From the IMG/VR virus record IMGVR_UViG_2695420456_000021: a stretch of DNA of 33,504 bases. One strand, written 5' to 3'. Source of the stretch: a virus. Its lineage: Duplodnaviria; Heunggongvirae; Uroviricota; Caudoviricetes. Numbering within the stretch: position 1 is the first letter of the stretch; each line of letters begins with the position of its first letter. Below are positions 3,894 to 26,458 of this stretch, piece after piece. The notes under the pieces are model-generated. The model saw nothing but the letters and a program-made list of their open reading frames with translations, was not told where the DNA came from and ran no database searches. The position numbers and the translations under genes are program-made.

Positions 3894-4165
3894 GTATTCG
3901 TATCGAAATTGGCGAACGTTATGTCGTTACCAGTGACAGCTTTCAGTTTATTCTCCACGAGAAAAAGAGAGCGGAAAGCGGTAAAAACGCCGGCCAGGAA
4001 TGGCTGGCGGTGGTTGGTTATTACCCGAAATTAAGCCAGCTCGTTTCCGGCCTGATGCATCACGATATTCTGACCGGAAGCGCAAAATCTTTTGCTGATT
4101 TAAACGCGCAGGTTGAGCAACTCAGCAAGCGTTGTTCAGAGGCTTTTGGCTCACATGGCCGTTAA
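3890..4165 (+). CDS. Hypothetical early-operon protein (P2 orf83 position)
   Basis: ORF track; overlaps upstream stop and the downstream A start. Confidence 0.5.
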   Translation: MSIRIEIGERYVVTSDSFQFILHEKKRAESGKNAGQEWLAVVGYYPKLSQLVSGLMHHDILTGSAKSFADLNAQVEQLSKRCSEAFGSHGR

Positions 4166-6230
4166 AGCCTCCGGGCGTTTTGTCCCTCCGTCAGCATTTG
4201 CCGCAGGCACCGGTAAGACGTTTACCGGTGCTTATGCATGGAACGCGCCACGCGAGGCCGTCGGGCGCGAAAGACCCCTTACACGTGACGAGATGCGTCA
4301 GGTGCAAGGTGTTTTATCCACGATTAACCGCCTGCCTTACTTTTTGCGTTCGCTGTTTACTTCACGCTATGACTACATCCGGCGCAATAAAAGCCCGGTG
4401 CACGGGTTTTATTTCCTCACATCCACTTTTCAGCGTCGTTTATGGCCGCGCATTGAGCGCGTGAATCAGCGCCATGAAATGAACACCGACGCGTCGTTGC
4501 TGTTTCTGGCAGAGCGTGGCCACTATGCGCGCCTGCCTGGAATGAATGACAAGGAGCTGAAAAAGTTTGCCGCCCGTATCTCATCGCAGCTTTTCATGAT
4601 GTATGAGGAACTCTGCGATGCATGGGTTGATGCGCATGGTGAAAAAGAATCGCTGTTTACGGATGAGGCGCAGGCTCACCTGTATGGTCATGTTGCTGGC
4701 GCTGCACGTGCTTTCAATATTTCCCCGCTCTACTGGAAAAAATACCGTAAAGGACAGATGACCACGAGGCAGGCATATTCTGCCATTGCCCGTCTGTTTA
4801 ACGATGAGTGGTGGATTAGTCAGCTTAAAGGCCAGCGTATGCGCTGGCATGAGGCGTTACTGATTGCTGTCGGGGAGGTCAATAAAGACCGTTCTCCTTA
4901 TGCCAGTAAACATGCCATTCGTGATGTGCGTGCGCGCCGCCAGGCAAATCTGGAATTTCTTAAATCGTGTGACCTTGAAAACAGGGAAACCGGCGAGCGC
5001 ATCGACCTTATCAGTAAGGTGATGGGCAGTATTTCTAATCCAGAAATTCGCCGGATGGAGCTGATGAACACCATTGCCGGTATTGAGCGTTACGCCGCCG
5101 CAGAGGGTGATGTGGGGATATTTATCACGCTTACCGCGCCGTCAAAGTATCACCCGACACGTCAGGTCGGAAAAGGCGAAAGTAAAACCGTCCAGCTAAA
5201 TCATGGCTGGAACGATGAGGCATTTAATCCAAAGGATGCGCAGCGTTATCTCTGCCGTATCTGGAGCCTGATGCGCACGGCATTCAAGGATAATGATTTA
5301 CAGGTCTACGGTTTGCGTGTCGTCGAGCCACACCACGACGGAACGCCGCACTGGCATATGATGCTTTTTTGTCATCCACGCCAGCGTAACCAGATTATCG
5401 AAACCATGCGTCGCTACGCGCTCAAAGAGGATGGCGACGAAAGAGGAGCTGCGCGAAACCGTTTTCAGGCAAAACACCTTAACCGGGGCGGTGCTGCGGG
5501 GTATATCGCGAAATACATTTCAAAAAATATCGACGGATATGCACTGGATGGTCAGCTCGATAATGATACCGGCAGACCGCTGAAAGACACTGCCGCGGCT
5601 GTTACCGCATGGGCGTCAACGTGGCGCATCCCGCAATTTAAAACGGTTGGCCTGCCGACAATGGGAGCTTACCGTGAACTACGCAAATTGCCTCGCGGCG
5701 TCAGTATTGCTGATGAGTTTGACGAACGCGTCGAGGCTGCTCGCGCTGCCGCAGACAGTGGTGATTTTGCGTTGTATATCAGCGCGCAGGGTGGGGCAAA
5801 TGTCCCGCGCGATTGTCAGACTGTCAGGGTTGCCCGTAGCCCGTCGGATGACGTTAACGAGTACGAGGAAGAAGTCGAGAGAGTGGTCGGCATTTACGCG
5901 CCGCATCTCGGCGCGCGTCATATTCATATCACCAGAACGACGGACTGGCGCATTGTGCCGAAAGTTCCGGTCGTTGAGCCTTTGACTTTAAAAAGCGGCA
6001 TCGCCGCGCCTCGGAGTCCTGTCAATAACTGTGGAAAGCTCACTGGTGGTGATACTTCGTTACCGGCTCCCACACCTTCTGAGCACGCCGCAGCAGTGTT
6101 GGATTTGATTGATATAGGGGTGGTTAGTTGGAATGATGCTGAGGTGATGACAGTTCTTAGGAAGAGGTTAAAAGATTACTCACGGGAATTGATGGTATTC
6201 AAGGGAAGGGCTAGCCAACGCCCAATCTGA
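4155..6230 (+). CDS. A: Rolling-circle replication initiator, P2 A-like (HUH endonuclease)
   Basis: HUH-like 'TPHWHMMLF' and tyrosine motif 'YIAKYISK'. Track start 4113 is a TTG; first in-frame ATG is 4155 (MAVKASGRF...). Start uncertain. Confidence 0.9.
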   Translation: MAVKASGRFVPPSAFAAGTGKTFTGAYAWNAPREAVGRERPLTRDEMRQVQGVLSTINRLPYFLRSLFTSRYDYIRRNKSPVHGFYFLTSTFQRRLWPRIERVNQRHEMNTDASLLFLAERGHYARLPGMNDKELKKFAARISSQLFMMYEELCDAWVDAHGEKESLFTDEAQAHLYGHVAGAARAFNISPLYWKKYRKGQMTTRQAYSAIARLFNDEWWISQLKGQRMRWHEALLIAVGEVNKDRSPYASKHAIRDVRARRQANLEFLKSCDLENRETGERIDLISKVMGSISNPEIRRMELMNTIAGIERYAAAEGDVGIFITLTAPSKYHPTRQVGKGESKTVQLNHGWNDEAFNPKDAQRYLCRIWSLMRTAFKDNDLQVYGLRVVEPHHDGTPHWHMMLFCHPRQRNQIIETMRRYALKEDGDERGAARNRFQAKHLNRGGAAGYIAKYISKNIDGYALDGQLDNDTGRPLKDTAAAVTAWASTWRIPQFKTVGLPTMGAYRELRKLPRGVSIADEFDERVEAARAAADSGDFALYISAQGGANVPRDCQTVRVARSPSDDVNEYEEEVERVVGIYAPHLGARHIHITRTTDWRIVPKVPVVEPLTLKSGIAAPRSPVNNCGKLTGGDTSLPAPTPSEHAAAVLDLIDIGVVSWNDAEVMTVLRKRLKDYSRELMVFKGRASQRPI
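6006..6025 (+). other. Candidate replication origin/nick site inside A (gcgcctcggagtcctgtcaa)
   Basis: From memory, P2/186-family ori lies in the 3' part of gene A with a sequence like this; not verified. Confidence 0.3.
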
Positions 6231-6402
6231 TTATGTTTTGTAATGATAAGTTAATGCTGAATGAGTGGCTCGCGCATAACCTTGCGGGAAAAAGAGCATA
6301 TTATGTACAGTTTTGAGGTTGGCTAGAGAGGATGGGCGAGATAGTTTGTGTTTGTGTGGGTTTGAGAAGTTTGATGCGCACATCAAAAATTGATACAACT
6401 GA

Positions 6403-6431
6403 TTGAAAAAATGATAAAAAAGCTGTTAAAT
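6403..6431 (+). promoter_or_regulatory. Putative sigma70 promoter for the cargo cassette (TTGAAA, 17-bp spacer, TTAAAT)
   Basis: Hexamers read from sequence about 25 bp upstream of ATG 6456; AT-rich context makes chance matches likely. Confidence 0.3.
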
Positions 6432-6455
6432 GCGTCAGTTTTCTAAGGGGGGAAG

Positions 6456-7586
6456 ATGAAAAAAATAACCAAGAGAGAAAGAGAGAGAGATATTTTACGA
6501 TCCTATTTACATCGTACAGGAAGAGATGTTGTATCTGCAGGGCGCTCTAAGATTAATCCTATTTCAAAAGCATCAAAAATAAATCGTTGGATAAATGCGC
6601 AAATTAAAGATGGATTAAATTGCGAAATAAGGAAAAATAGAGACCTTTTCCTTACTTTACCTAAAAAGATGAACTTTTCAAGTAATTACCATCGTACAAT
6701 GCAGGCCATACAAACGATTAGGCATCTTACGGGGCGGAAGATATTTAATAACCAATGTTATCGTCTTTGTTTTGTTGACTTTTCGAAGATTGAATATATT
6801 TCTGCATCTGCCGCATTGGTATTGACCGCGGAATTATCAAAATGGGATGATTCGGTAAGGCAACGCATTCGCCCAAAAGTGAAAACGTGGAATAAAAACA
6901 TACTCTCTCAATTTGATGAGTTGGGTTTTTTTGACTTATTTAGAAATAAAGATAGTTTTGAGCTTGAAAAAGAAAAGGAACCAAGTAATATCCGTTTTGT
7001 TAAGTATATGAAAGGACATTTACATGATGATGAAAAAACTCAGCATTTAAAAAAAGAAATAAAGCGTATTGTGGGAGAAGACCTTGGTAAATGGACTTTC
7101 CTATACAGTGGTTTGTCCGAAGCTATTACAAATGTTGTTCATCATGCTTATCCAGATAATAAAGGCTATCATGAGCATGATAAAAAATGGTATTTAACTG
7201 CTTCATATGATAGTTCAAGTAGAATAATAAAAGTAGTGTTTTATGATCAAGGTATTACAATTCCTGGGTCTTTGCCGGAATCTAAACTCCATGAAAAGGT
7301 TTTAAATTACCTTTCGAAGTTACCGCTTGCAGAACGAAAAAGAGATGAACAATTGTTAAAGGCTGCAGTTGAAATCAAACGTTCTAGTACGGGGGAAGAG
7401 GATCGGGGTAAAGGCTTGCAGGACTTGTTGGAGTTCATAAAGCAACGTGGTGAAGGTTATCTTTCAATTATGAGTGGTAAAGGCCTTTACAAATACTCAC
7501 AACATGATAAAAAATCTGAGGTAAAATCAGTAAGCTTCGCTCTGCCTGTTTGTGGTACACTTATAGTATGGAGTACAAAGCTATGA
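6456..7586 (+). CDS. Cargo protein 1 (376 aa): N-terminal STAS-like segment plus C-terminal GHKL/HATPase_c-like ATPase (anti-sigma-factor-kinase-like)
   Basis: RBS aagggggg before ATG. Motifs 'EAITNVVHHAY' (N-box-like), 'YDQGITIPG' (G1-like), 'DRGKGLQDL' (G2-like); N-terminal 'VDFSKIEYISASAALVL' resembles the STAS core. No Walker A. AT-rich. Confidence 0.75.
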   Translation: MKKITKRERERDILRSYLHRTGRDVVSAGRSKINPISKASKINRWINAQIKDGLNCEIRKNRDLFLTLPKKMNFSSNYHRTMQAIQTIRHLTGRKIFNNQCYRLCFVDFSKIEYISASAALVLTAELSKWDDSVRQRIRPKVKTWNKNILSQFDELGFFDLFRNKDSFELEKEKEPSNIRFVKYMKGHLHDDEKTQHLKKEIKRIVGEDLGKWTFLYSGLSEAITNVVHHAYPDNKGYHEHDKKWYLTASYDSSSRIIKVVFYDQGITIPGSLPESKLHEKVLNYLSKLPLAERKRDEQLLKAAVEIKRSSTGEEDRGKGLQDLLEFIKQRGEGYLSIMSGKGLYKYSQHDKKSEVKSVSFALPVCGTLIVWSTKL

Positions 7587-7972
7587 TTACTAGATTGGTT
7601 GCTAGCCTCATGAAAACATTGAAGATTGGTTCAGAGTTCTCGAAAGTTCCCAGAGGCCGCTATCGTACTGACGGGACAGCAAGTGGTGAACGGTTTAGAG
7701 AAGATTTCTTAAGGAAGCGTCTAAGCTTGCTTTCTGCTGGGGAAAAATTGCAGATAGTCATCGACGATGATGTCGAAGGATATGGTTCGTCTTTTTTGGT
7801 GGAGGGCTTTGCGGGCATGGTAAAATATGGATATATGCATGCCAATGAATTATTGTCTAAAATTGAAATTAAATATACTAATCCTGATTTTGATTTCTAT
7901 AAAAAGAAAATAGAACAATATATCAACGAGGCGCAGTTTAATTCGAAACGATATGAGCCAACAGTCGAATAA
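7583..7972 (+). CDS. Cargo protein 2 (129 aa): small STAS-like / DUF4325-like protein
   Basis: ATG 7583 overlaps the gene-1 stop as ATGA; ggag 8-9 nt upstream. Motif 'IVIDDDVEGYGSSFLVEGF'. Track start 7550 lacks an RBS. Confidence 0.65.
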   Translation: MITRLVASLMKTLKIGSEFSKVPRGRYRTDGTASGERFREDFLRKRLSLLSAGEKLQIVIDDDVEGYGSSFLVEGFAGMVKYGYMHANELLSKIEIKYTNPDFDFYKKKIEQYINEAQFNSKRYEPTVE

Positions 7973-8615
7973 TCCGATGTTTATTTTAGGTGAGAGTTCT
8001 GGTGAGTTCTCACCTAGTTTGCTTTTTATCAAGAAGGATAATGAAGAAGGCCTGAGTGCTACTCATGCAGTTAAGGATATTAATACGGTAATTGAAGTAG
8101 CTAGTTCTAATATTGTTGATGCAATACGGCATCCACCTGAAACGCCTATTTTATCGTCATCACTTATTACGGCTCTTATTAGTACTATTTGTGCGGCTAC
8201 TGCCGCATTTGCATATAATAAAGTCCATTGGCGTTCTGTTGTTAAACGGGAGACTAAAACCAAACTCCTGGAGAGTATTTCAGATGTGGTTAATGAGTTG
8301 CGTTCTGATGCTATTAGTTATTGGTTGAAGGGGTATTCAAAAAAGTCGGCGAAGTCTCTCTTAGAAGAGGAAATGAGAATTAAGGCGAGTTTAAATATAA
8401 TAAATTCGACTATAACAATATATGTTCAGCAAGAGTCGCGATGGAAAAGAAAGGATATTGAAGCTCAGTTAAGGGTTTTTCATGACGAACTTTTTGATAT
8501 TATAACAGGTGATGATTTTGAGTCTCAGGCAAGGAAGCAGGATAAGGCAAAGGTTTCTGCTATTTCTACAAAGTGTGTGGCTTTTCGCGTTTTATTAAAT
8601 ACCATCAAGTTTTAA
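7953..8615 (+). CDS. Cargo protein 3 (220 aa): predicted single-pass membrane protein, candidate effector
   Basis: Start overlaps the gene-2 3' end by 20 nt; hydrophobic stretch 'PILSSSLITALISTICAATAAFAY' (about residues 65-88); charged C-terminal region. Alternative start ATG 7977. Confidence 0.6.
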   Translation: MSQQSNNPMFILGESSGEFSPSLLFIKKDNEEGLSATHAVKDINTVIEVASSNIVDAIRHPPETPILSSSLITALISTICAATAAFAYNKVHWRSVVKRETKTKLLESISDVVNELRSDAISYWLKGYSKKSAKSLLEEEMRIKASLNIINSTITIYVQQESRWKRKDIEAQLRVFHDELFDIITGDDFESQARKQDKAKVSAISTKCVAFRVLLNTIKF

Positions 8616-8747
8616 GATAGCCATGCATGAGTTTGGTGCATGAAAATGCATGAGGTTTTACGAATTATTTTGGCTAAAATCAGCCTGCCCTGACTGGCTA
8701 CGGCAGATATCATGCACCTGCATTAAAACCGCCCCATGAAGCGGGCG

Positions 8748-8766
8748 GGCGAGGCGGGGAAAGCAC
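8748..8766. other. cos site (19-nt cohesive-end sequence ggcgaggcggggaaagcac)
   Basis: Matches the P2 cohesive-end sequence as I recall it; sits between the cargo island and Q as in P2. Confidence 0.6.
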
Positions 8767-8909
8767 TGCGCGCTGGCGGTGGTGCTGATTTTATTTTTTC
8801 AGCGTCTGAGCGCGTCGTGATGGCGTTTAAATTGTTCGCCGGGGCCGTTGGTGTGTCTGCGGGGTGTTTTGTGCGGTGGTGAGCGTATGAGGGCGTGATG
8901 ACGGGGTGT

Positions 8910-8932
8910 AAAAAAGCCGCCCGCAGGCGGCG
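8910..8932 (-). terminator. Intrinsic terminator after Q (minus-strand stem gccgcc/ggcggc, then T6)
   Basis: Plus strand shows aaaaaa-gccgcc-cgca-ggcggc just 3' of the Q stop. Confidence 0.55.
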
Positions 8933-8936
8933 ATGT

Positions 8937-9971
8937 TCAGCCGTTGTCAGTGTCCAGTGAGTAGTTTTTAAAGCGGATGACTTCCTGGCCGAGCCAGCCG
9001 TTTATCTCGCGGATCCTGTCCTGTAGCGGGATAAGCTCATTGCGGACAAAGACCTTTGCCACTTTCTCAATATCGCCCAGCGACCCGACGTTCTCCGGCT
9101 TGCCGCCCATCAACTGAAAGGGGATGCGGTGCGCGTCCAGCAGGTCAGCGGCGCTGGCTTTTTTGATATTAAAAAAATCGTCCTTCGTTGCCACTTCACT
9201 GAGCGGGATAATTTTAATGCCGTCGGCTTTCCCCTGTGGGGCATAGAGAAACAGGTTTTTAAAGTTGTTGCGGCCTTTCGACTTCACCATGTTTTCGCGG
9301 AGCATTTCGATATCGTTGCGATCCTGCACGGCATCGGTGACGTACATGATGTATCCGGCATGTGCGCCGTTTTCGTAATACTTGCGGCGGAACAGCGTGG
9401 CTGATTCATTCAGCCAGGCAGAGTTAAGGGCGCTGAGATATTCCGGCAGGCCGTACAGCTCCTGATTGATATCCGGCTCCAGCAGGTGAAACACGGAGCC
9501 GGGCGTGAAAGGTGTTGGCTCGTTGAAGGACGGCACCCACCAGTAAATATCTTCTTCCACACCACGGCGGGTATATTTTGCCGGTGAGGTTTCCAGTCTG
9601 ATGATCTTACCGGTGGTGCTGTAACGCTTTTCCAGAAACGCATTACCGAACACCAGAAAATCCAGCACAAAGCGGCTGAAATCCTGCTGGGAAAGCCACG
9701 GATGCGGGATAAATGTCGAGGCCAGAATATTACGTTTGACGTAAATCGGGGAGCTGTGATGCACGGCAGCACGCAGGCTTTTTGCCAGACCGGTAAAGCT
9801 GACCGGTGGCTCATACCATCTGCCGTTACTGATGCACTCGACGTAATCCAGAATGTCACGGCGATCGAGTACCGGCACCGGCTCACCAAAGGTGAATGCC
9901 TCCATTTTCGGGGCGCTGGCGGTCATTGTTTTTGCCGCTGGTCGCGGTGTTTTCCCTTTTTTCTTGCTCAT
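8937..9971 (-). CDS. Q: Portal protein, P2 Q-like (344 aa)
   Basis: ORF track; same length as P2 Q; start overlaps the P stop (TGATG). Confidence 0.95.
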   Translation of the reverse strand: MSKKKGKTPRPAAKTMTASAPKMEAFTFGEPVPVLDRRDILDYVECISNGRWYEPPVSFTGLAKSLRAAVHHSSPIYVKRNILASTFIPHPWLSQQDFSRFVLDFLVFGNAFLEKRYSTTGKIIRLETSPAKYTRRGVEEDIYWWVPSFNEPTPFTPGSVFHLLEPDINQELYGLPEYLSALNSAWLNESATLFRRKYYENGAHAGYIMYVTDAVQDRNDIEMLRENMVKSKGRNNFKNLFLYAPQGKADGIKIIPLSEVATKDDFFNIKKASAADLLDAHRIPFQLMGGKPENVGSLGDIEKVAKVFVRNELIPLQDRIREINGWLGQEVIRFKNYSLDTDNG

Positions 9972-11743
9972 CAGTAAAACTCCAGAATGGTGGATGTCAG
10001 CGGAGTGCTGATACCGGCGGTGAGTGGCTCATTTAACAGGGCGTGCATGGTCGCCCAGGCGAGGTCGGCGTGGCTGGCTTCCTCGCTGCGGCTGGCCTCA
10101 TAGGTGGCGCTGCGTCCGCTGCTGGTCATGGTCTTGCGGATAGCCATAAACGAGCTGGTGATGTCGGTGGCGCTGACGTCATATTCCAGACAGCCACGGC
10201 GGATAACGTCTTTTGCCTTGAGCACCATTGCGGTTTTCATTTCCGGCGTGTAGCGGATATCGCGAGCGGCGGGATAGAACGAGCGCACGAGCTGGAACAC
10301 ACCGACACCGAGGCCGGTGGCATCAATCCCGATGTATTCGACGTTGTATTTTTCGGTGAGTTTGCGGATGGATTCTGCCTGGGTGGCAAAGTCCATGCCT
10401 TTCCACTGGTGACGCTCAAGGATCCTGAATTTGCCACCGGCCACCACCGGCGGTGCCAGCACCACGCATCCGGCGCTGTCGCCACGGTGTGACGGGTCGT
10501 AACCAATCCATACCGGGCGGGAGCCGAACGGATTTGCGGCAAACGGCGCATAGTCTTCCCATTCTTCCAGCGTGTCGACCATACAGCGTTGCAGCTCCTC
10601 GAACGGGAACACCGACGCCTTGTCGTCAACAAATTCACACATGAACAGGTTTTTAAAATCGTCGGCGCTGTTTTCGCGTTTGAGCTGCTCAATGTCGAAC
10701 AGCGTGCAGCCGCCTTTCAGGGCGTCCTCAATGGTGACAATCTGCCGCCACTGGCCGTCCGCACAGAGAAGCCCACCGGCAAGGGCGTTATGACTGACGT
10801 CGATTTCCACGCGTTCGGCGGCGCTGGCGCGTCCCCGGTTGAACAGTTCACCCGACCAGAACGGGTAGGCGTCGTGCGCCAGCGTGGACGGGGTGGAGAA
10901 ATAGGTCGATCGCAGGTGACTCTGTGAGGCCATACCTGATGCCACCTTACGCAGCACCTGAAAATTCGGGATCCAGAAAATCTCGTCGACGTACAGGTCG
11001 CCGTTATGGCTCTGCGCGGTGTTGGAGTTGGTGCCGAGAAAAATCAGTTTTGCGCCGTTATTGCCCAGGACAATCGGGTCACCGGTCAGGTCAACGTCAA
11101 CCAGACGGGCAAAGGCGATGATGTATTCGCGGAACACATACGCCTGCGTTTTACTGGCCGACAGAAAAATCTGGTTATGACCTGTTTTCAGGGCGCGCAG
11201 CAGCGCCTCGCGGGAAAAATAAAACGTCGCGCCAATCTGGCGGGATTTCAGGATATCGCGGATGCGGTGCTCAAGCCCGGCGCGATACCAGTGCAACTGA
11301 TATTCGAAAGACTGCTCAAAGAAAATCTGCTCCAGCTTTTCGATAGCCTCGTCGCTGAAAAAATTCTTTTTCGGTTTGCGACGCCCGCCTTTGTTGCGGT
11401 TAGCGACGTTCGGATTAAGGTCTGCCTCGTTGCCGGTCTGGCTGTAGCGGTTTACCCGTGCCAGTCGTTCAATCTGGCGTCCGAGCAGGTCAATTTCCTT
11501 GAAGTCACCGCCGGTTTTCTGCGGTTTGATAATGAGCTGGGTCAGCCGCGCTTCCAGACTCATTTCGACACGGCTGATGGGGGCAACGCTGTCCCAGCCG
11601 TCGCGCTGTTTCCAGCTCTGCACCGTCGGGCGTTTCATCTGCAACATGGCGGCAATCTGCGGCACGGAAAACCCCTGCCAGTACAGCAGCGCCGCCTGAC
11701 GACGCGGGTCGTGCAAAAGAGTGGTGTCTGTGGTGATGGTCAT
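9971..11743 (-). CDS. P: Terminase large subunit, P2 P-like (590 aa from ATG at 11743)
   Basis: Track gives 600 aa from 11773; internal start 'MTITTDTTLLHD...' is preceded by a gaggt RBS and matches the P2 P N-terminus as I recall it. Confidence 0.9.
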   Translation of the reverse strand: MTITTDTTLLHDPRRQAALLYWQGFSVPQIAAMLQMKRPTVQSWKQRDGWDSVAPISRVEMSLEARLTQLIIKPQKTGGDFKEIDLLGRQIERLARVNRYSQTGNEADLNPNVANRNKGGRRKPKKNFFSDEAIEKLEQIFFEQSFEYQLHWYRAGLEHRIRDILKSRQIGATFYFSREALLRALKTGHNQIFLSASKTQAYVFREYIIAFARLVDVDLTGDPIVLGNNGAKLIFLGTNSNTAQSHNGDLYVDEIFWIPNFQVLRKVASGMASQSHLRSTYFSTPSTLAHDAYPFWSGELFNRGRASAAERVEIDVSHNALAGGLLCADGQWRQIVTIEDALKGGCTLFDIEQLKRENSADDFKNLFMCEFVDDKASVFPFEELQRCMVDTLEEWEDYAPFAANPFGSRPVWIGYDPSHRGDSAGCVVLAPPVVAGGKFRILERHQWKGMDFATQAESIRKLTEKYNVEYIGIDATGLGVGVFQLVRSFYPAARDIRYTPEMKTAMVLKAKDVIRRGCLEYDVSATDITSSFMAIRKTMTSSGRSATYEASRSEEASHADLAWATMHALLNEPLTAGISTPLTSTILEFY

Positions 11744-20603: not shown

Positions 20604-22853
20604 ATGAGCACAAAATTCAGAACCGTTATCACCACTGCCGGTGCAGCAAAGCTGGCAGCGGCAACCGCGCCGGGAGGGCGGAAGGTCAACATTACCACGA
20701 TGGCCGTCGGGGATGGCGGTGGTAAATTGCCTGTCCCGGATGCCGGACAGACCGGGCTTATCCACGAAGTCTGGCGACATGCGCTGAACAAAATCAGCCA
20801 GGACAAACGAAACAGTAATTATATTATCGCAGAGCTGGTTATTCCGCCGGAGGTGGGCGGTTTCTGGATGCGTGAGCTTGGCCTGTACGATGATGCTGGA
20901 ACGTTAATTGCCGTGGCGAACATGGCCGAAAGTTATAAGCCAGCTCTTGCCGAAGGCTCAGGGCGTTCGCAGACCTGTCGCATGGTCATCATCGTCAGCA
21001 GTGTGGCCTCAGTGGCGCTGACCATTGACACCACAACGGTGATGGCGACGCAGGATTACGTTGATGACAAAATTGCAGAGCATGAACAGTCACGACGTCA
21101 CCCGGACGCCTCGCTGACCGCAAAAGGTTTTACTCAGTTAAGCAATGCGACCAACAGCACGTCTGAAACACTGGCCGCAACGCCGAAAGCGGTTAAGGCC
21201 GCCTATGACCTGGCTAACGGGAAATACACTGCGCAGGATGCCACCACAGCGCGAAAAGGCCTTGTCCAGCTCAGTAGCGCCACCAACAGCACGTCTGAAA
21301 CGCTCGCCGCAACACCAAAAGCGGTAAAGGCAGCATATGACCTTGCTAACGGGAAATACACTGCACAGGACGCCACCACAGCGCGAAAAGGTCTTGTCCA
21401 GCTCAGTAGCGCCACCAACAGCGATTCTGAAACGCTTGCGGCAACGCCAAAGGCGGTAAAGGCAGCATATGACCTCGCTAACGGGAAATATACCGCACAG
21501 GATGCCACCACAGCGCGAAAAGGTCTTGTCCAGCTCAGTAGCGCCACCAACAGTGATTCTGAAACGCTGGCTGCAACACCAAAAGCGGTGAAGTCTGCCT
21601 ATGACAATGCTGAAAAACGTCTTCAGAAAGATCAGAACGGTGCGGATATTCCTGATAAAGGACGCTTCCTGAGTAACATTAATGTTTACAGCAAAGGTGA
21701 AGTGGATAAGAAAAAGGGAATGCGAAAGTATTCGTTTGCAGCCCCTGCAAATGTCGTTGCCGGGAAGTGGTATCCCGTTATCTTTCGCCGTGCTGCCAGC
21801 CTTTCAGGAGAAATGGCATCCCGCGTCGTTATTTCCACTGGTTGTTATAACAGCGATTATGTAATGAATAACTGCGAGTTTAATGGCATGGTTATGCCCG
21901 GAGGCTGGACTGATCGTGGTTCATATGCGGCAGGTTATTTCTGGACGTATCAGACTAATGAGCGTTCAATTCATTCCATTGTTACAAGCCTGAAAGATGA
22001 TGATGTATGTAGTGTTTTTTATGTTGAAGCCAGAGCTTTCCCTGTACAAATTCTTGCAGAGGAAGGGCTAACGGTTATTGTTCCGACAGAGGATTATGTC
22101 GTCGGTCAGACGACATATAAGTGGGGGGCAACTAATCCCGCTACAGAAAGCACGAACGCGCAGGCTATTCTGGATTTTAAAAATGGGCGCGGTTATTACT
22201 GCTCACATCCATTTATTTCCAGCCTTTCAGGAAATGCTGCAACAGCAACAAAGTTAGCGAACGCAAGAAATATTAATGGTGTCAGATTTGATGGCTCTGC
22301 CGATATAAATATTAATACACTGGTTTCCAGAAACCGTGTTACTGCATTAGGTGGGAGCGTAAAGGGGACACCAGGTATTCAGATGTATGAGGCATACAAC
22401 AATGGCTACCCAACAGCCTATGGTAATGTGCTTCATCTCACTGGTGTAACCGCAGTAGGAGAGGGTGAGTTACTTATTGGCTGGAGTGGAACCAGCGGTG
22501 CTCATGCTCCGGCATATATTCGCTCCCGACGAGATACCACAGATGCTAACTGGTCTGGATGGGCGCAACTATATACAACTGCTCATAAACCCTCAGCGGG
22601 AGATGTTGGTGCATACACCAAAGCTGAGTCAGATTCACGTTATGTGAGAGACATGCGGCTGGGCGGTGCATCTACATATAAACCAGCAAATAATGGTATT
22701 ACATGGACGCATCAGGCTCCGTCAGGTTGCGTATATACCGGCATTATTGTTCAGGATACCGGCTCAAACTCTGCCGATAACATTGGTGGCGTATATTACA
22801 GACCGGTGCAGAAATACATTAACGGGACATGGTATAACGTGGCGCAGGTATAA
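20604..22853 (+). CDS. H: Tail fiber protein, P2 H-like (749 aa) with internal tandem repeats and compositionally distinct C-terminal domain
   Basis: ORF track; conserved N-terminus (MSTKFRTVITTAGAAKLAAA...); repeats at about 21109-21600; GC drops after about 21650. Confidence 0.9.
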   Translation: MSTKFRTVITTAGAAKLAAATAPGGRKVNITTMAVGDGGGKLPVPDAGQTGLIHEVWRHALNKISQDKRNSNYIIAELVIPPEVGGFWMRELGLYDDAGTLIAVANMAESYKPALAEGSGRSQTCRMVIIVSSVASVALTIDTTTVMATQDYVDDKIAEHEQSRRHPDASLTAKGFTQLSNATNSTSETLAATPKAVKAAYDLANGKYTAQDATTARKGLVQLSSATNSTSETLAATPKAVKAAYDLANGKYTAQDATTARKGLVQLSSATNSDSETLAATPKAVKAAYDLANGKYTAQDATTARKGLVQLSSATNSDSETLAATPKAVKSAYDNAEKRLQKDQNGADIPDKGRFLSNINVYSKGEVDKKKGMRKYSFAAPANVVAGKWYPVIFRRAASLSGEMASRVVISTGCYNSDYVMNNCEFNGMVMPGGWTDRGSYAAGYFWTYQTNERSIHSIVTSLKDDDVCSVFYVEARAFPVQILAEEGLTVIVPTEDYVVGQTTYKWGATNPATESTNAQAILDFKNGRGYYCSHPFISSLSGNAATATKLANARNINGVRFDGSADININTLVSRNRVTALGGSVKGTPGIQMYEAYNNGYPTAYGNVLHLTGVTAVGEGELLIGWSGTSGAHAPAYIRSRRDTTDANWSGWAQLYTTAHKPSAGDVGAYTKAESDSRYVRDMRLGGASTYKPANNGITWTHQAPSGCVYTGIIVQDTGSNSADNIGGVYYRPVQKYINGTWYNVAQV
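21109..21600 (+). repeat. In-frame tandem repeat, 132-bp unit (44 aa), about 3.7 copies, within tail fiber gene H
   Basis: Unit boundaries at 21241, 21373, 21505; encoded repeat '...SSATNS(T/D)SETLAATPKAVKAAYDLANGKYTAQDATTARKGLVQL'. Confidence 0.85.
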
Positions 22854-22856
22854 TTT

Positions 22857-23384
22857 ATGCAGCATTTAAAAAATATTACGGCGGGTAATCCAAAAACGGT
22901 TGAACAATATCAATTGACAAAGGACTTTGATGTTGTCTGGTTTTTTTCAGAAGATGGTAAGAACTGGTACGAAGAACAAAAGTATTTTGCTGATGACACG
23001 ATAAAAATAGCGTACGACAAAGATAATATTATCCGCTATGTGGAAAAGGATGTGACAGCTATCAGACCGGATGGATTAAGTGTGGTTGAAGTGGCGGATA
23101 TTACTGCTAACCGACGGGCGGACATTTCAGGGAACTGGATGTTTAAGGATGGCAAAGTGATTAAACGCATTTATACGGCAGAGGAATTGCAGCAGCAGGC
23201 AGAAAACCGGAAAGCTAGACTTCTTGCAGATGCTGAATCCGTGATTTTGCCGCTGGAGCGCGCTGTCAGGTTGAACATGGCAACAGAGGAGGAGCGCACA
23301 CGGCTGGAGGCTTGGGAACGCTACAGCGTTGTGGTCAGTCGTGTGGATCCTGCAAATCCTGAATGGCCGGAAATGCCGCAATAA
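22857..23384 (+). CDS. G: Tail fiber assembly chaperone, P2 G-like (175 aa)
   Basis: ORF track; size and position after H; lower GC, co-varying with the H C-terminus. Confidence 0.85.
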
Positions 23385-23570
23385 GTTGTATGAACTCTGG
23401 TGTGAGCTTACATATCTATGGCACAGAGTAAAGCCTAATCTGACAGTCCGCTCTGTGCCAGGAGCGGAAGTTGCCAAGAGAACTCTTGCAAAGGTATGAT
23501 AACGTAGGTGCTAAATAATCATGAACCATAATAAATTAAAGGTTTTTAAGTTAACTCTATGGCGTTTCTT

Positions 23571-23599
23571 TTGCATGATGATTTTTTATTTATTATATA
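23571..23599 (+). promoter_or_regulatory. Putative sigma70 promoter (TTGCAT, 17-bp spacer, TATATA) upstream of the Z/fun-position cargo gene
   Basis: Hexamers read from sequence; AT-rich context. Confidence 0.3.
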
Positions 23600-23665
23600 A
23601 AGCTTAAATATACATAATATTTAGCTTCATTTTTTTAGGTATTTTAAAGATTTAGAGGAATGTGA

Positions 23666-25009
23666 ATGGCTACTTATGCTTCTTATTTACCAGAATCACA
23701 AATTATCACTTTGTGCAAGGATTTCCCAGCGTTTACTGATCCTGAAAAATTAGATGGATTCATTAATCCAGAACAGTTTGGCGTGTTTTTTCATGAGTGG
23801 ATTCATTTTCTTCACAATATTTCCACAATTAATGGGTTTTCTATTTTTTGCACGCAAAACATCCTGTGGTCTAATTTTCGCTGGGCAATGGACAATCAGG
23901 ATGTATGTCTTGGTTCAAATGACATGGATCCAGCACATATCGAATCAAACAAAAATTTTCTCAGTTACATTCGTTCCAATAGGAGTCTGCATAAATGTAA
24001 CTTACCTTATTATGTAAAAGTAAACGACTTGTATTTTGAGGATGCAATAATCCATGACATGGAGGTTGCTGACGGTAGTGTTATATGTACATCATTAATA
24101 AAGTGTAGAATTTCTCATTCTGAAAACAAATACGATCTAGATTTAGGCGTGCTTGAAATACTTGAATCCGCAGCTTTTATGCTTGAATGTAAGTGTATTA
24201 ATGCGATGAATGGCTTCCCTCAAGAGGCACCCTTTTATCCGTATCATACTATCAAAGGCTTAGCAGCGAAAATTGCTCCGTCATTAAATGATGAAGATAT
24301 TATTTGTTGTATGTTAGCTTCTTTGCAATCTAATAACCCTCCCCAAGTATTATTCAATCTACTACATAAATGTGAATTATTACATTCTGATTGTAGGTAT
24401 GAACATCTAGTGGCGGAGGTGAAAAAACAATTAAGCGAACAAGATCAAATAATAAGCGAGTCACTTAATCAAATAATTCAAATGATTCCTGTTGATGAAC
24501 CGATGGGAAACTTTATCAAGCTTACTCTTAACAGAATAAGTAACAATTTGAACTATAGAAAGCAAAAACCGTTTTTTGAGTTAGATATAATAAAAAAAAT
24601 AGCAGAAAAAACTGAGTTTATGAATGAAGTAATACAGAAATTCGGTGGTTGCACTATCATCCAGGTAAGACATGGAGATGATAATGAACCACAGCGTGAT
24701 ATTATGTATGACTTTTGCTTACCTGAAAATAATGATTCAATTTTATTTGGTTCGAAAATGCTACGCGCTTGTTTTCACTTTATATTTATTCACTTTAAAC
24801 TTTCTGGTGAAATCATGAAGACAGAAGAATTAAATATTTCGCCGCGTAATAAATGCCCATTTTATACTGTTTGCTGTGCATCAATTCGAGCTAATAATAG
24901 TAATATCTGCGCTGAATCCCCTTGGAAATCAATGTCTATTGATGACAACAAAGGTTGTTATTATGCAGCAGCGATTAAAGCTACTAACCCACCAGTTTTG
25001 CCGGATTAA
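23666..25009 (+). CDS. Cargo protein (447 aa) with N-terminal HExxH motif and Cys-rich C-terminal half; possible Zn-dependent hydrolase, function unknown
   Basis: RBS agagga before ATG; 'FFHEWIHFLH' at residues 41-50 (codons about 23792-23806); many Cys pairs; about 32% GC in a sampled line; occupies the P2 Z/fun position. Confidence 0.7.
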   Translation: MATYASYLPESQIITLCKDFPAFTDPEKLDGFINPEQFGVFFHEWIHFLHNISTINGFSIFCTQNILWSNFRWAMDNQDVCLGSNDMDPAHIESNKNFLSYIRSNRSLHKCNLPYYVKVNDLYFEDAIIHDMEVADGSVICTSLIKCRISHSENKYDLDLGVLEILESAAFMLECKCINAMNGFPQEAPFYPYHTIKGLAAKIAPSLNDEDIICCMLASLQSNNPPQVLFNLLHKCELLHSDCRYEHLVAEVKKQLSEQDQIISESLNQIIQMIPVDEPMGNFIKLTLNRISNNLNYRKQKPFFELDIIKKIAEKTEFMNEVIQKFGGCTIIQVRHGDDNEPQRDIMYDFCLPENNDSILFGSKMLRACFHFIFIHFKLSGEIMKTEELNISPRNKCPFYTVCCASIRANNSNICAESPWKSMSIDDNKGCYYAAAIKATNPPVLPD

Positions 25010-25145
25010 GAATAGTGTTCTTTCTGATAAATATAAAATATTTAAGGTCAGGTCTGCTTATCGCTCAAAGCAGACTGTCAGATTTGATAACGTTTGGGCT
25101 ATGTAAACCGTCAGTTGGAAAATGAGTGAGTGCAAGTCAGGACAG

Positions 25146-25167
25146 GCGGGCGGATTGCCCGCCTTTT
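25146..25167 (+). terminator. Probable intrinsic terminator after the cargo gene (ggcgggc/gcccgcc stem then TTTT)
   Basis: Stem-loop plus T-run read from sequence, about 140 bp downstream of the stop. Confidence 0.4.
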
Positions 25168-25267
25168 CTTTATCTGTTGTTTCATCCACTGACCAGCCAG
25201 GTCAAATAGCGCCTCATGCTCTGCACAACAGAAAATAGTTGCACCCATTAACCACGGAGTTAAACGG

Positions 25268-26458
25268 ATGAGTGACTATCATCACGGCGTGCAGGTGCTG
25301 GAGATTAACGACGGCACACGCGTCATTTCCACCGTATCCACTGCCATTGTCGGCATGGTCTGCACGGCCAGCGATGCGGATGCGGAAACCTTCCCCCTCA
25401 ATAAACCTGTGCTGATTACCAATGTGCAGAGTGCAATTGCAAAGGCCGGTAAAAAAGGCACGCTGGCGGCATCGTTGCAGGCCATCGCTGACCAGTCAAA
25501 ACCGGTCACCGTTGTCGTGCGCGTGGAAGACGGCACCGGTGATGACGAGGAAACGAAACTCGCGCAGACCGTTTCCAATATTATCGGCACCACTGACGAA
25601 AACGGTCAGTACACCGGACTGAAAGCCCTGCTGGCGGCGGAGTCGGTAACCGGTGTTAAACCGCGTATTCTTGGTGTGCCGGGGCTGGATACCAAAGAGG
25701 TGGCTGTTGCACTGGCATCAGTCTGTCAGAAGCTGCGCGCTTTCGGATATATCAGCGCATGGGGCTGTAAGACCATTTCCGAGGTGAAAGCCTACCGCCA
25801 GAATTTCAGCCAGCGTGAGCTGATGGTCATCTGGCCGGATTTCCTCGCATGGGATACGGTCACCAGTACCACCGCCACCGCGCATGCCACCGCCCGTGCG
25901 CTGGGTCTGCGCGCTAAAATCGACCAGGAGCAGGGCTGGCATAAAACGCTGTCCAACGTTGGGGTAAACGGTGTTACCGGCATCAGCGCATCTGTATTCT
26001 GGGATTTGCAGGAGTCCGGCACCGATGCTGACCTGCTTAACGAGTCAGGCGTCACTACGCTGATTCGCCGTGACGGTTTCCGCTTCTGGGGTAACCGTAC
26101 CTGCTCTGATGACCCGCTGTTCCTCTTTGAAAACTACACCCGCACCGCGCAGGTGCTGGCCGACACGATGGCTGAGGCGCACATGTGGGCGGTGGACAAG
26201 CCCATCACCGCAACGCTGATTCGCGACATCGTTGACGGCATCAATGCCAAATTCCGTGAGCTGAAAACAAACGGCTATATCGTGGATGCGACCTGCTGGT
26301 TCAGCGAAGAATCCAACGATGCGGAAACCCTCAAGGCCGGAAAACTGTATATCGACTACGACTATACCCCGGTGCCTCCTCTCGAAAACCTGACCCTGCG
26401 CCAGCGTATTACCGATAAATACCTGGCAAATCTGGTCACCTCGGTTAACAGCAATTAA
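25268..26458 (+). CDS. FI: Tail sheath protein, P2 FI-like (396 aa)
   Basis: ORF track; size and synteny. Confidence 0.95.
   Translation: MSDYHHGVQVLEINDGTRVISTVSTAIVGMVCTASDADAETFPLNKPVLITNVQSAIAKAGKKGTLAASLQAIADQSKPVTVVVRVEDGTGDDEETKLAQTVSNIIGTTDENGQYTGLKALLAAESVTGVKPRILGVPGLDTKEVAVALASVCQKLRAFGYISAWGCKTISEVKAYRQNFSQRELMVIWPDFLAWDTVTSTTATAHATARALGLRAKIDQEQGWHKTLSNVGVNGVTGISASVFWDLQESGTDADLLNESGVTTLIRRDGFRFWGNRTCSDDPLFLFENYTRTAQVLADTMAEAHMWAVDKPITATLIRDIVDGINAKFRELKTNGYIVDATCWFSEESNDAETLKAGKLYIDYDYTPVPPLENLTLRQRITDKYLANLVTSVNSN

Follow-up and report, generated by a model that had tools for sequence, protein, structure and literature searches.

The 33,504-nucleotide stretch of DNA analysed here (the window) is a P2-like prophage, and the 1.9-kb intergenic segment between its tail-fibre assembly (G) and tail-sheath (FI) genes is a horizontally acquired one-gene cassette that occupies the Z/fun hotspot and is bounded by inverted repeats belonging to the phage backbone. 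The single long ORF of this segment encodes a 447-aa protein from a large, unnamed family whose members almost without exception carry an HExxH motif, and which recurs in defence islands and as cargo of mobile elements. We infer that the gene product is a zinc-dependent hydrolase, probably a peptidase, which on its own provides anti-phage defence much as the Lit protease does, a composite reading that we consider evenly balanced between right and wrong. Taken separately, a role in anti-phage defence is mildly favoured, metal-dependent hydrolase activity is fairly likely, and the more specific assignment as a peptidase is a possibility that we hold with slight doubt.

The flanking genes were named from the RefSeq annotation of an identical prophage, where they are listed as tail fibre assembly protein and tail sheath protein, and this confirmed the placement of an AT-rich cargo between G and FI, at the Z/fun position, that had been proposed in a sequence-only reading of this DNA. 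We set the edges of the cassette by alignment with the Z-region record of P2-EC67 (AJ512685), which carries a different ORF in the same slot and has left and right inverted repeats annotated. Relative to P2-EC67, the window is nearly identical up to ~23473, unrelated from there to ~25050, and nearly identical again as far as the start codon of the sheath gene. The slot is composed of the following features:

22857..23384: tail-fibre assembly gene (ORF; RefSeq annotation of the identical prophage)
23385..23473, plus strand: conserved left flank of the Z/fun slot, ~95% identical to the 'left inverted repeat' region of P2-EC67
23437-23468: left inverted repeat arm, inside the left flank, pairing with 25053-25084
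23474..25050 (about), plus strand: AT-rich foreign cargo cassette, GC 0.327, within which similarity to P2-EC67 is absent
25053..25084, plus strand: right inverted repeat arm, part of the backbone and equivalent to the P2-EC67 'right inverted repeat'
25268..26458: tail-sheath gene (ORF; RefSeq annotation of the identical prophage)

The two arms of the inverted repeat are 32 nt long. GC content is 0.31-0.34 over positions 23400-25000 compared with 0.54-0.58 downstream, and GC3 is 0.28 for the cargo ORF compared with 0.67 for the sheath gene. Together with the overall GC of 0.327, these values indicate that the cargo is of foreign origin.

Among 5426 complete E. coli genomes, 1324 match the query, mostly over the conserved flanks, and the cargo is present in only 13 of these (0.24% of complete E. 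coli genomes). The carriers include STEC and APEC strains, and in 12 of the 13 the full query is covered at 99.8-100% identity with the ORF intact. Elsewhere the same slot holds genes for a restriction endonuclease, a Shedu (immune) nuclease, DUF4145 or SMEK-domain proteins, or hypothetical proteins of various sizes; that is, different and unrelated genes sit at the same position in related phages. The Z/fun locus has been described as a second defence-enriched locus of P2-like phages (Vassallo et al., PMC9519451), and a later hotspot survey likewise reports the slot as defence-enriched (10.1101/2024.10.15.618418). About one in four complete E. coli genomes contains a P2-like prophage, and new immune systems have repeatedly been discovered in the hotspots of these prophages.

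The cassette shares its slot with the known P2 Z/fun cargos, namely fun(Z), ORF1 of P2-EC67 and the PD-T4/PD-lambda systems of Vassallo et al. 2022, and it resembles them in its flanking inverted repeats, in its downstream terminator and in consisting of one AT-rich gene that is oriented the same way. The protein, in contrast, is unrelated to the cargo of sequenced P2-like phages: a tblastn search of 50,697 sequenced phage records returned no homologue, and on this basis we rejected homology to P2 fun(Z) or to other sequenced P2-like cargo. We also counted this result against our preferred reading. None of the PADLOC models for the systems of Vassallo and Rousset matches the protein.

Promoter-like sites in the region number 6 against a shuffled expectation of 8.4 +/- 2.4, which is not above chance, and the expression signals of the cargo gene are therefore only plausible. 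The elements that could serve as such signals are listed below.

23471..23500, plus strand: best sigma-70-like promoter candidate, TTGCCA-18-TATGAT, agreeing with the consensus at 10/12 positions and spanning the flank/cargo junction
23571..23599, plus strand: promoter-like TTGCAT-17-TATATA, agreeing at 3+4 = 7/12 consensus positions
23654..23659, plus strand: Shine-Dalgarno sequence AGAGGA, as read from the sequence, 6 nt upstream of the ATG
25144..25174, plus strand: intrinsic-terminator-like hairpin, with a 9-bp GC-rich stem (25144-25164) followed by a T run

The gene had earlier been credited with a promoter, a ribosome-binding site and a terminator of its own. The ribosome-binding site is present. 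The promoter then proposed, TTGCAT-17-TATATA, exists in the sequence but is weak and does not appear in the list returned by a promoter scan. The hairpin is real and is the sole good intrinsic terminator in the scanned region, but it is a conserved backbone element upstream of the sheath gene that is identical in P2-EC67 despite the different cargo there. As both the inverted repeats and the terminator lie in the part held in common with P2-EC67, we assign them to the slot and backbone and not to the cargo.

The cargo gene, found as the one 447-aa ORF that had been reported for this segment, and the codons of its principal conserved residues are placed as follows:

23666..25009, plus strand: cargo ORF, 447 aa, 51 kDa, pI 5.3; RefSeq WP_000257039.1, 'hypothetical protein'
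23792..23806, plus strand: codons of the HExxH motif (H43-E44-W-I-H47), within predicted helix 35-53
24164..24166, plus strand: codon of E167, candidate third metal ligand, in predicted helix 162-180
24854..24958, plus strand: C-terminal four-Cys module, C397-x5-C403-x11-C415-x15-C431, with R408 and P419-W420; Cys conserved at 100%, putative metal-binding site

The protein is soluble, with neither a signal peptide nor a transmembrane segment (maximum 19-residue hydropathy 1.37), and on these grounds we rejected the possibility that it is a secreted or membrane protein. It gave zero matches in Pfam, NCBIfam, PADLOC-DB 2.0 and PDB sequences, two family profiles (A1 and A3) returned nothing useful from Pfam, NCBIfam, PADLOC and PDB, and a literature search by accession, PHROG identifier and keywords found no description of the WP_000257039.1 protein. 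It belongs over its full length to PHROG 15354 (E 1.8e-274), and its C-terminus matches PHROG 36473, both of which are phage protein clusters that carry no functional annotation. Sequence and profile searches gave no match to a structural phage protein; such a match was one of the outcomes that the sequence-only reading had named as telling against its proposal.

A word-indexed search identified 36 homologues among Enterobacterales, Aeromonas and Rheinheimera, the most distant at 24% identity, and a profile search against 1.84 billion cluster representatives identified 1034 clusters (50% identity) at E <= 0.001, including 285 at E <= 1e-30. Nearly all of the homologues from the profile search are 440-500 aa long (about 450) and align end to end, and members of the family occur widely among soil and water bacteria of the Beta-, Gamma- and Alphaproteobacteria and the Bacteroidetes. 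One branch within the Bacteroidetes retains residues 1-325, motif included, and has a different, cysteine-rich C-terminus.

The motif that had first drawn attention to the protein, FFHEWIHFLH at residues 41-50, is present, and it proved to be a hallmark of the family, with HExxH found in 161 of 162 full-length representatives and a surrounding consensus of FxHEYxHYLHN; the earlier proposal had been staked on such conservation. In an alignment of 102 representatives with 17-40% identity to the query, H43, E44, E167, Y193, R298, C397, C403, C415 and C431 are invariant, and H47, N51, T54, C329, H376 and W420 are conserved in at least 90%. Across 163 representatives, H43 and E44 are conserved at 100% and H47 and E167 at 99%, and H376 is near-invariant (97%). 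The preservation of key residues across the 1034 clusters indicates strong purifying selection. The many Cys pairs noted in the C-terminal half resolve into one invariant four-Cys module, whereas the rest of the 20 cysteines are unconserved save C329 (90%). The four invariant cysteines would most simply form a structural zinc site in a cytoplasmic protein.

In gluzincins of the thermolysin type, the metal is bound by two His residues and a remote Glu, and the Glu of the motif acts as the base, with a Tyr, an Arg and a His nearby. The residue inventory of the family is similar to that of the gluzincins (MEROPS clan MA(E), including thermolysin, M4, and clostridial collagenase, M9), and could be applied to it as follows: the conserved HExxH lies in a predicted alpha-helix, and the invariant E167, on a later predicted helix, is a candidate for the third ligand. 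M9 enzymes carry an HEYTHYL motif, which the family consensus resembles, and chains of ColH (M9) appeared in the PDB sequence search at a non-significant E of 0.7, which we take as a hint only.

An AlphaFold2 model built from a 26-sequence alignment was of high confidence (mean pLDDT 92.3, pTM 0.92). Its N-terminal part comprises a short hairpin, the HExxH helix (35-53) and two further helices, its middle part a five-stranded sheet (123-160), the helix bearing E167 (162-180) and an eight-helix region (195-326), and its C-terminal part H376 and the four-Cys module. The model has no recognisable relative among solved structures; the zincin fold was not recovered, and membership of that fold is not supported by the model. 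The sheet in the model comes after the HExxH helix and not before it, and a rearranged order of sheet and HExxH helix can, we would expect, be missed by aligners that depend on the order of these elements.

No curated peptidase family in Pfam or NCBIfam matches the protein. When 102 diverse members of the family were searched against Pfam, no peptidase or hydrolase family was found save for one sub-threshold match to Peptidase_M85 (E 0.0097), and the same members gave only scattered matches at E >= 0.009 against PADLOC. The description of the protein as typical of zinc metallohydrolases thus holds for the motif, which is conserved, but it was not matched by a peptidase family or by a zincin fold. 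The family, its combination of motifs and its predicted fold are new to the databases and literature that we searched, whereas the hotspot setting and the principle of single-gene defence by a prophage protease are already known.

Because no fold match was obtained, some weight also has to be given to the alternative that this is a non-catalytic metal-binding protein, such as a sensor, scaffold or regulator, or an HExxH enzyme that is not a peptidase and acts, for example, on nucleic acids or nucleotides. We regard this alternative as unlikely, since the invariant Glu of the HExxH motif, the distant invariant Glu, the invariant Tyr and Arg and the near-invariant His fit the residue set of a gluzincin-type hydrolase. 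A HEPN nuclease reading of the middle helical domain, which would have been one form of a non-peptidase enzyme, was rejected as there is no Rx4-6H motif at the invariant R298.

Under the hydrolase reading, the cargo gene would encode a soluble, cytoplasmic metalloenzyme in which H43 and H47, on the HExxH helix, and E167, on the later helix, hold a catalytic zinc, with E44 as the general base and with Y193, R298 and H376 completing the active site. The C-terminal four-Cys module might hold a second, structural metal or might act in recognition of the target. The lysogen would express the protein as a single-protein anti-phage defence, and upon infection by another phage the enzyme would cleave either an essential host factor, leading to abortive infection, or a phage protein. 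Both the four-Cys module and the helical middle region are candidates for sensing the infection or recognising the substrate.

The closest functional precedent is Lit of prophage e14 (MEROPS U49/Pfam Peptidase_U49), a one-gene HExxH zinc protease that cleaves EF-Tu and thereby aborts infection by T4. Like Lit, the protein described here is a predicted cytoplasmic HExxH protein encoded by a single prophage-borne gene; unlike Lit, it has 447 and not 297 residues, and it carries a four-Cys module that Lit does not have. Homology between the two was rejected (hhalign probability 0.2%, BLASTP E 0.16 and no PF10463 match), and we propose Lit as a functional analogue only. A more far-reaching proposal, which we put forward tentatively and with real reservations, is that the protein is the first to be recognised from a widespread family of single-protein immune enzymes (at least 1000 clusters) that has a fold not in the PDB, that couples a rearranged HExxH/Glu zinc site to an infection-sensing four-Cys module, and that carries out protease-based abortive infection independently of Lit. 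If the gene protects against phages, one-gene defence of the protease type would gain a second lineage, independent of Lit, together with a new fold; otherwise the gene simply adds to the hotspot genes of unknown function. The family is large and has neither a name, a Pfam model nor a solved structural relative, and it offers a mutable candidate site in H43, E44 and E167. The gene is unusually well defined among the many unannotated hotspot genes, and its compact single-gene format makes it easy to test.

The presence of STEC and APEC strains among the carriers raises the alternative that the gene is a lysogenic-conversion or virulence factor, that is, a zinc-protease effector of the NleC/NleD type or a toxin directed against eukaryotic or rival bacterial cells. 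The Peptidase_M85 (NleC) match of one family member would agree with this, as would the original annotation of the P2-EC67 cargo as a 'putative lysogenic conversion protein'. That match is, however, a single one below threshold among the 102 members, the protein has no signal peptide or secretion signal, its four invariant cysteines are in keeping with a metal site in the cytoplasm, and the family is distributed through soil and water proteobacteria and Bacteroidetes. We consider a virulence function very improbable.

The genomic neighbourhoods of the homologues provide evidence for the defence role. On a Cupriavidus megaplasmid, the homologue has Gabija (GajA E 5e-233) on one side and Lamassu (LmuA E 5e-145) on the other, and a homologue on a primase-bearing element adjoins a second Gabija system (GajA E 3e-109, GajB E 5e-47) and a RES protein. 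In Enterobacter, the homologue adjoins retron I-A (RT E 6e-139 and its ATPase) and IS elements, and in Rheinheimera it lies directly beside TnsABCDE, as Tn7 cargo. The Sodalis homologue is inside a type IV secretion (ICE-like) region and adjoins an ApeA-type HEPN protein, another in an integrase island lies beside the integrase and an NB-ARC protein, and a Bacteroidetes homologue adjoins an Iet-like pair of AAA ATPase and S8 protease as well as an RHS toxin. The Burkholderia glumae plasmid copy follows three tyrosine recombinases and precedes MazEF, the Piscinibacter copy is among Tn3 and IS66 elements, and the Phaeobacter copy is among IS elements. A further P2-like viral contig carries a homologue that adjoins a DUF4062 gene near a homologue of replication gene A and that probably sits in the other P2 hotspot.

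The defence neighbours, comprising Gabija (twice, in unrelated loci), Lamassu, retron I-A, DUF4062 and the Iet-like pair, were confirmed with PADLOC or Pfam. The recurrence of the family beside Gabija, Lamassu and retron I-A, as Tn7 cargo, in an ICE and in what is probably another P2 hotspot supports a defence-type role. Two Aeromonas copies are plain chromosomal insertions that have no defence neighbours, and these count against it. The single-gene defence role put forward in the sequence-only reading is thus supported by the solitary nature of the gene and by its defence and mobile-element company, and it stays a proposed role.

These neighbourhoods also bear on the alternative that the cargo serves the phage itself as a counter-defence or host-takeover enzyme, for example as a protease degrading an immune protein of the host, or a protein of a competitor, during lytic growth of P2. 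The cargo gene has the orientation of the late tail operon, such that read-through during lytic growth is possible, and anti-defence genes, too, can reside in phage hotspots (10.1101/2024.10.15.618418). Most of the homologues, however, are found outside phages, on plasmids, Tn7, an ICE and chromosomal islands and beside Gabija, Lamassu and the retron, and the absence of a homologue from the phage genome records counts against a counter-defence function as well. We therefore judge this alternative improbable, and retain defence of the lysogen as the preferred reading.

A single gene on mobile elements with so patchy a distribution among complete E. coli genomes might also be selfish, as a toxin or addiction gene, or be a passenger in decay that benefits neither host nor phage. 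A toxin would be at odds with the loci, at which there is no antitoxin or immunity partner, and decay with an ORF that 12 genomes carry intact and at 99.8-100% identity; the purifying selection described above argues against both. Such an explanation seems to us scarcely credible.

The gene is solitary at every one of the loci, which have no conserved partner gene, and the ORFs immediately upstream and downstream are unrelated from one locus to the next. Upstream ORFs of ~205-246 aa occur at several loci and are mutually unrelated, and a two-gene system was accordingly rejected. Three of these upstream ORFs carry an Rx4H motif, and we treated them as neighbouring genes. Between two otherwise unrelated elements, the gene together with ~470 bp of upstream DNA is 87% identical, indicating that it moves as a cassette.

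Homologues of the 447-residue HExxH cargo protein are found on unrelated carriers. Positions 4620-6660 of locus L006, on a metagenomic element, and 8380-10570 of locus L024, on a Burkholderia glumae plasmid, share 87% identity over the homologue and about 470 bp of non-coding DNA upstream of it; their surroundings are unrelated. In L024, one 68-bp stretch is present twice, upstream and downstream of the homologue. The pattern at these two loci suggests either cassette-like mobility of the gene or a conserved regulatory leader. In Salmonella enterica, two entries of approximately 4 kb each (OX345047.1 and OX345461.1), filed as plasmids in PLSDB, contain incomplete copies of the gene with 96% protein identity; both appear to be short contigs and not true plasmids.

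Another homologue (461 aa, 28% identity, every key residue present) is found on the viral contig L033 (IMGVR_UViG_2623620586_000006), 13 bp after a gene encoding a DUF4062 protein:

L033 4906..7356, DUF4062 gene followed by the 461-aa homologue

A 2026 study reported DUF4062 to be an anti-phage family ('Evangelion'). As this contig encodes a gene A-type replication protein, the family of the HExxH protein also occurs near the replication gene of another P2-like phage.

At three distant loci, the ORF directly upstream of the homologue encodes a protein of 207-240 aa with an Rx4H motif (VRNSVEH, IRNFIAH, ARHSFEH):

L014 9241..9864, upstream ORF
L026 8162..8884, upstream ORF
L027 8056..8742, upstream ORF

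By BLASTP the three proteins are unrelated to one another, and one of them weakly matches HEPN_Swt1 (E 0.01). These ORFs may be adjoining HEPN-type defence genes or lineage-specific partners.

A Bacteroidetes variant, also present in Odoribacter laneus (L017), has as neighbours an RHS toxin and an Iet-like pair made up of an AAA ATPase and a Peptidase_S8 protein:

L035 5899..7200, 433-aa variant

Its N-terminal 325 residues, including HExxH, are common with the family; its C-terminus is cysteine-rich but unlike that of the rest of the family.

Composition along the window identifies an additional AT-rich island (GC 0.33-0.40 at 6300-8700), which lies between the gene A-like ORF and the portal gene and is the old/tin hotspot position:

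4113..6230, replication gene A-like ORF
6456..7586, + strand, 376-aa island ORF
7953..8615, + strand, 220-aa island ORF
8937..9971, - strand, portal gene

Neither island ORF had a PADLOC match, and Pfam returned only sub-threshold matches, to HATPase_c_2 (E 0.006) and RsbRD_N (E 0.09).

In Escherichia coli 2013C-4830 (L001), the prophage of the window, with identical cargo, is in decay: an IS2 element has inserted, the replication gene is truncated, the tail-fibre gene is frameshifted and the tape-measure gene is broken. Its cargo ORF is still intact.

Within the window, the tail-fibre protein contains a unit of ~44 aa repeated three times in tandem (YTAQDATTARKGLVQLSSATNS.SETLAATPKAVKAAYDLANGK):

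20604..22853, tail-fibre ORF, tandem repeats at about 21150-21600

AT skew is higher across the repeat stretch.
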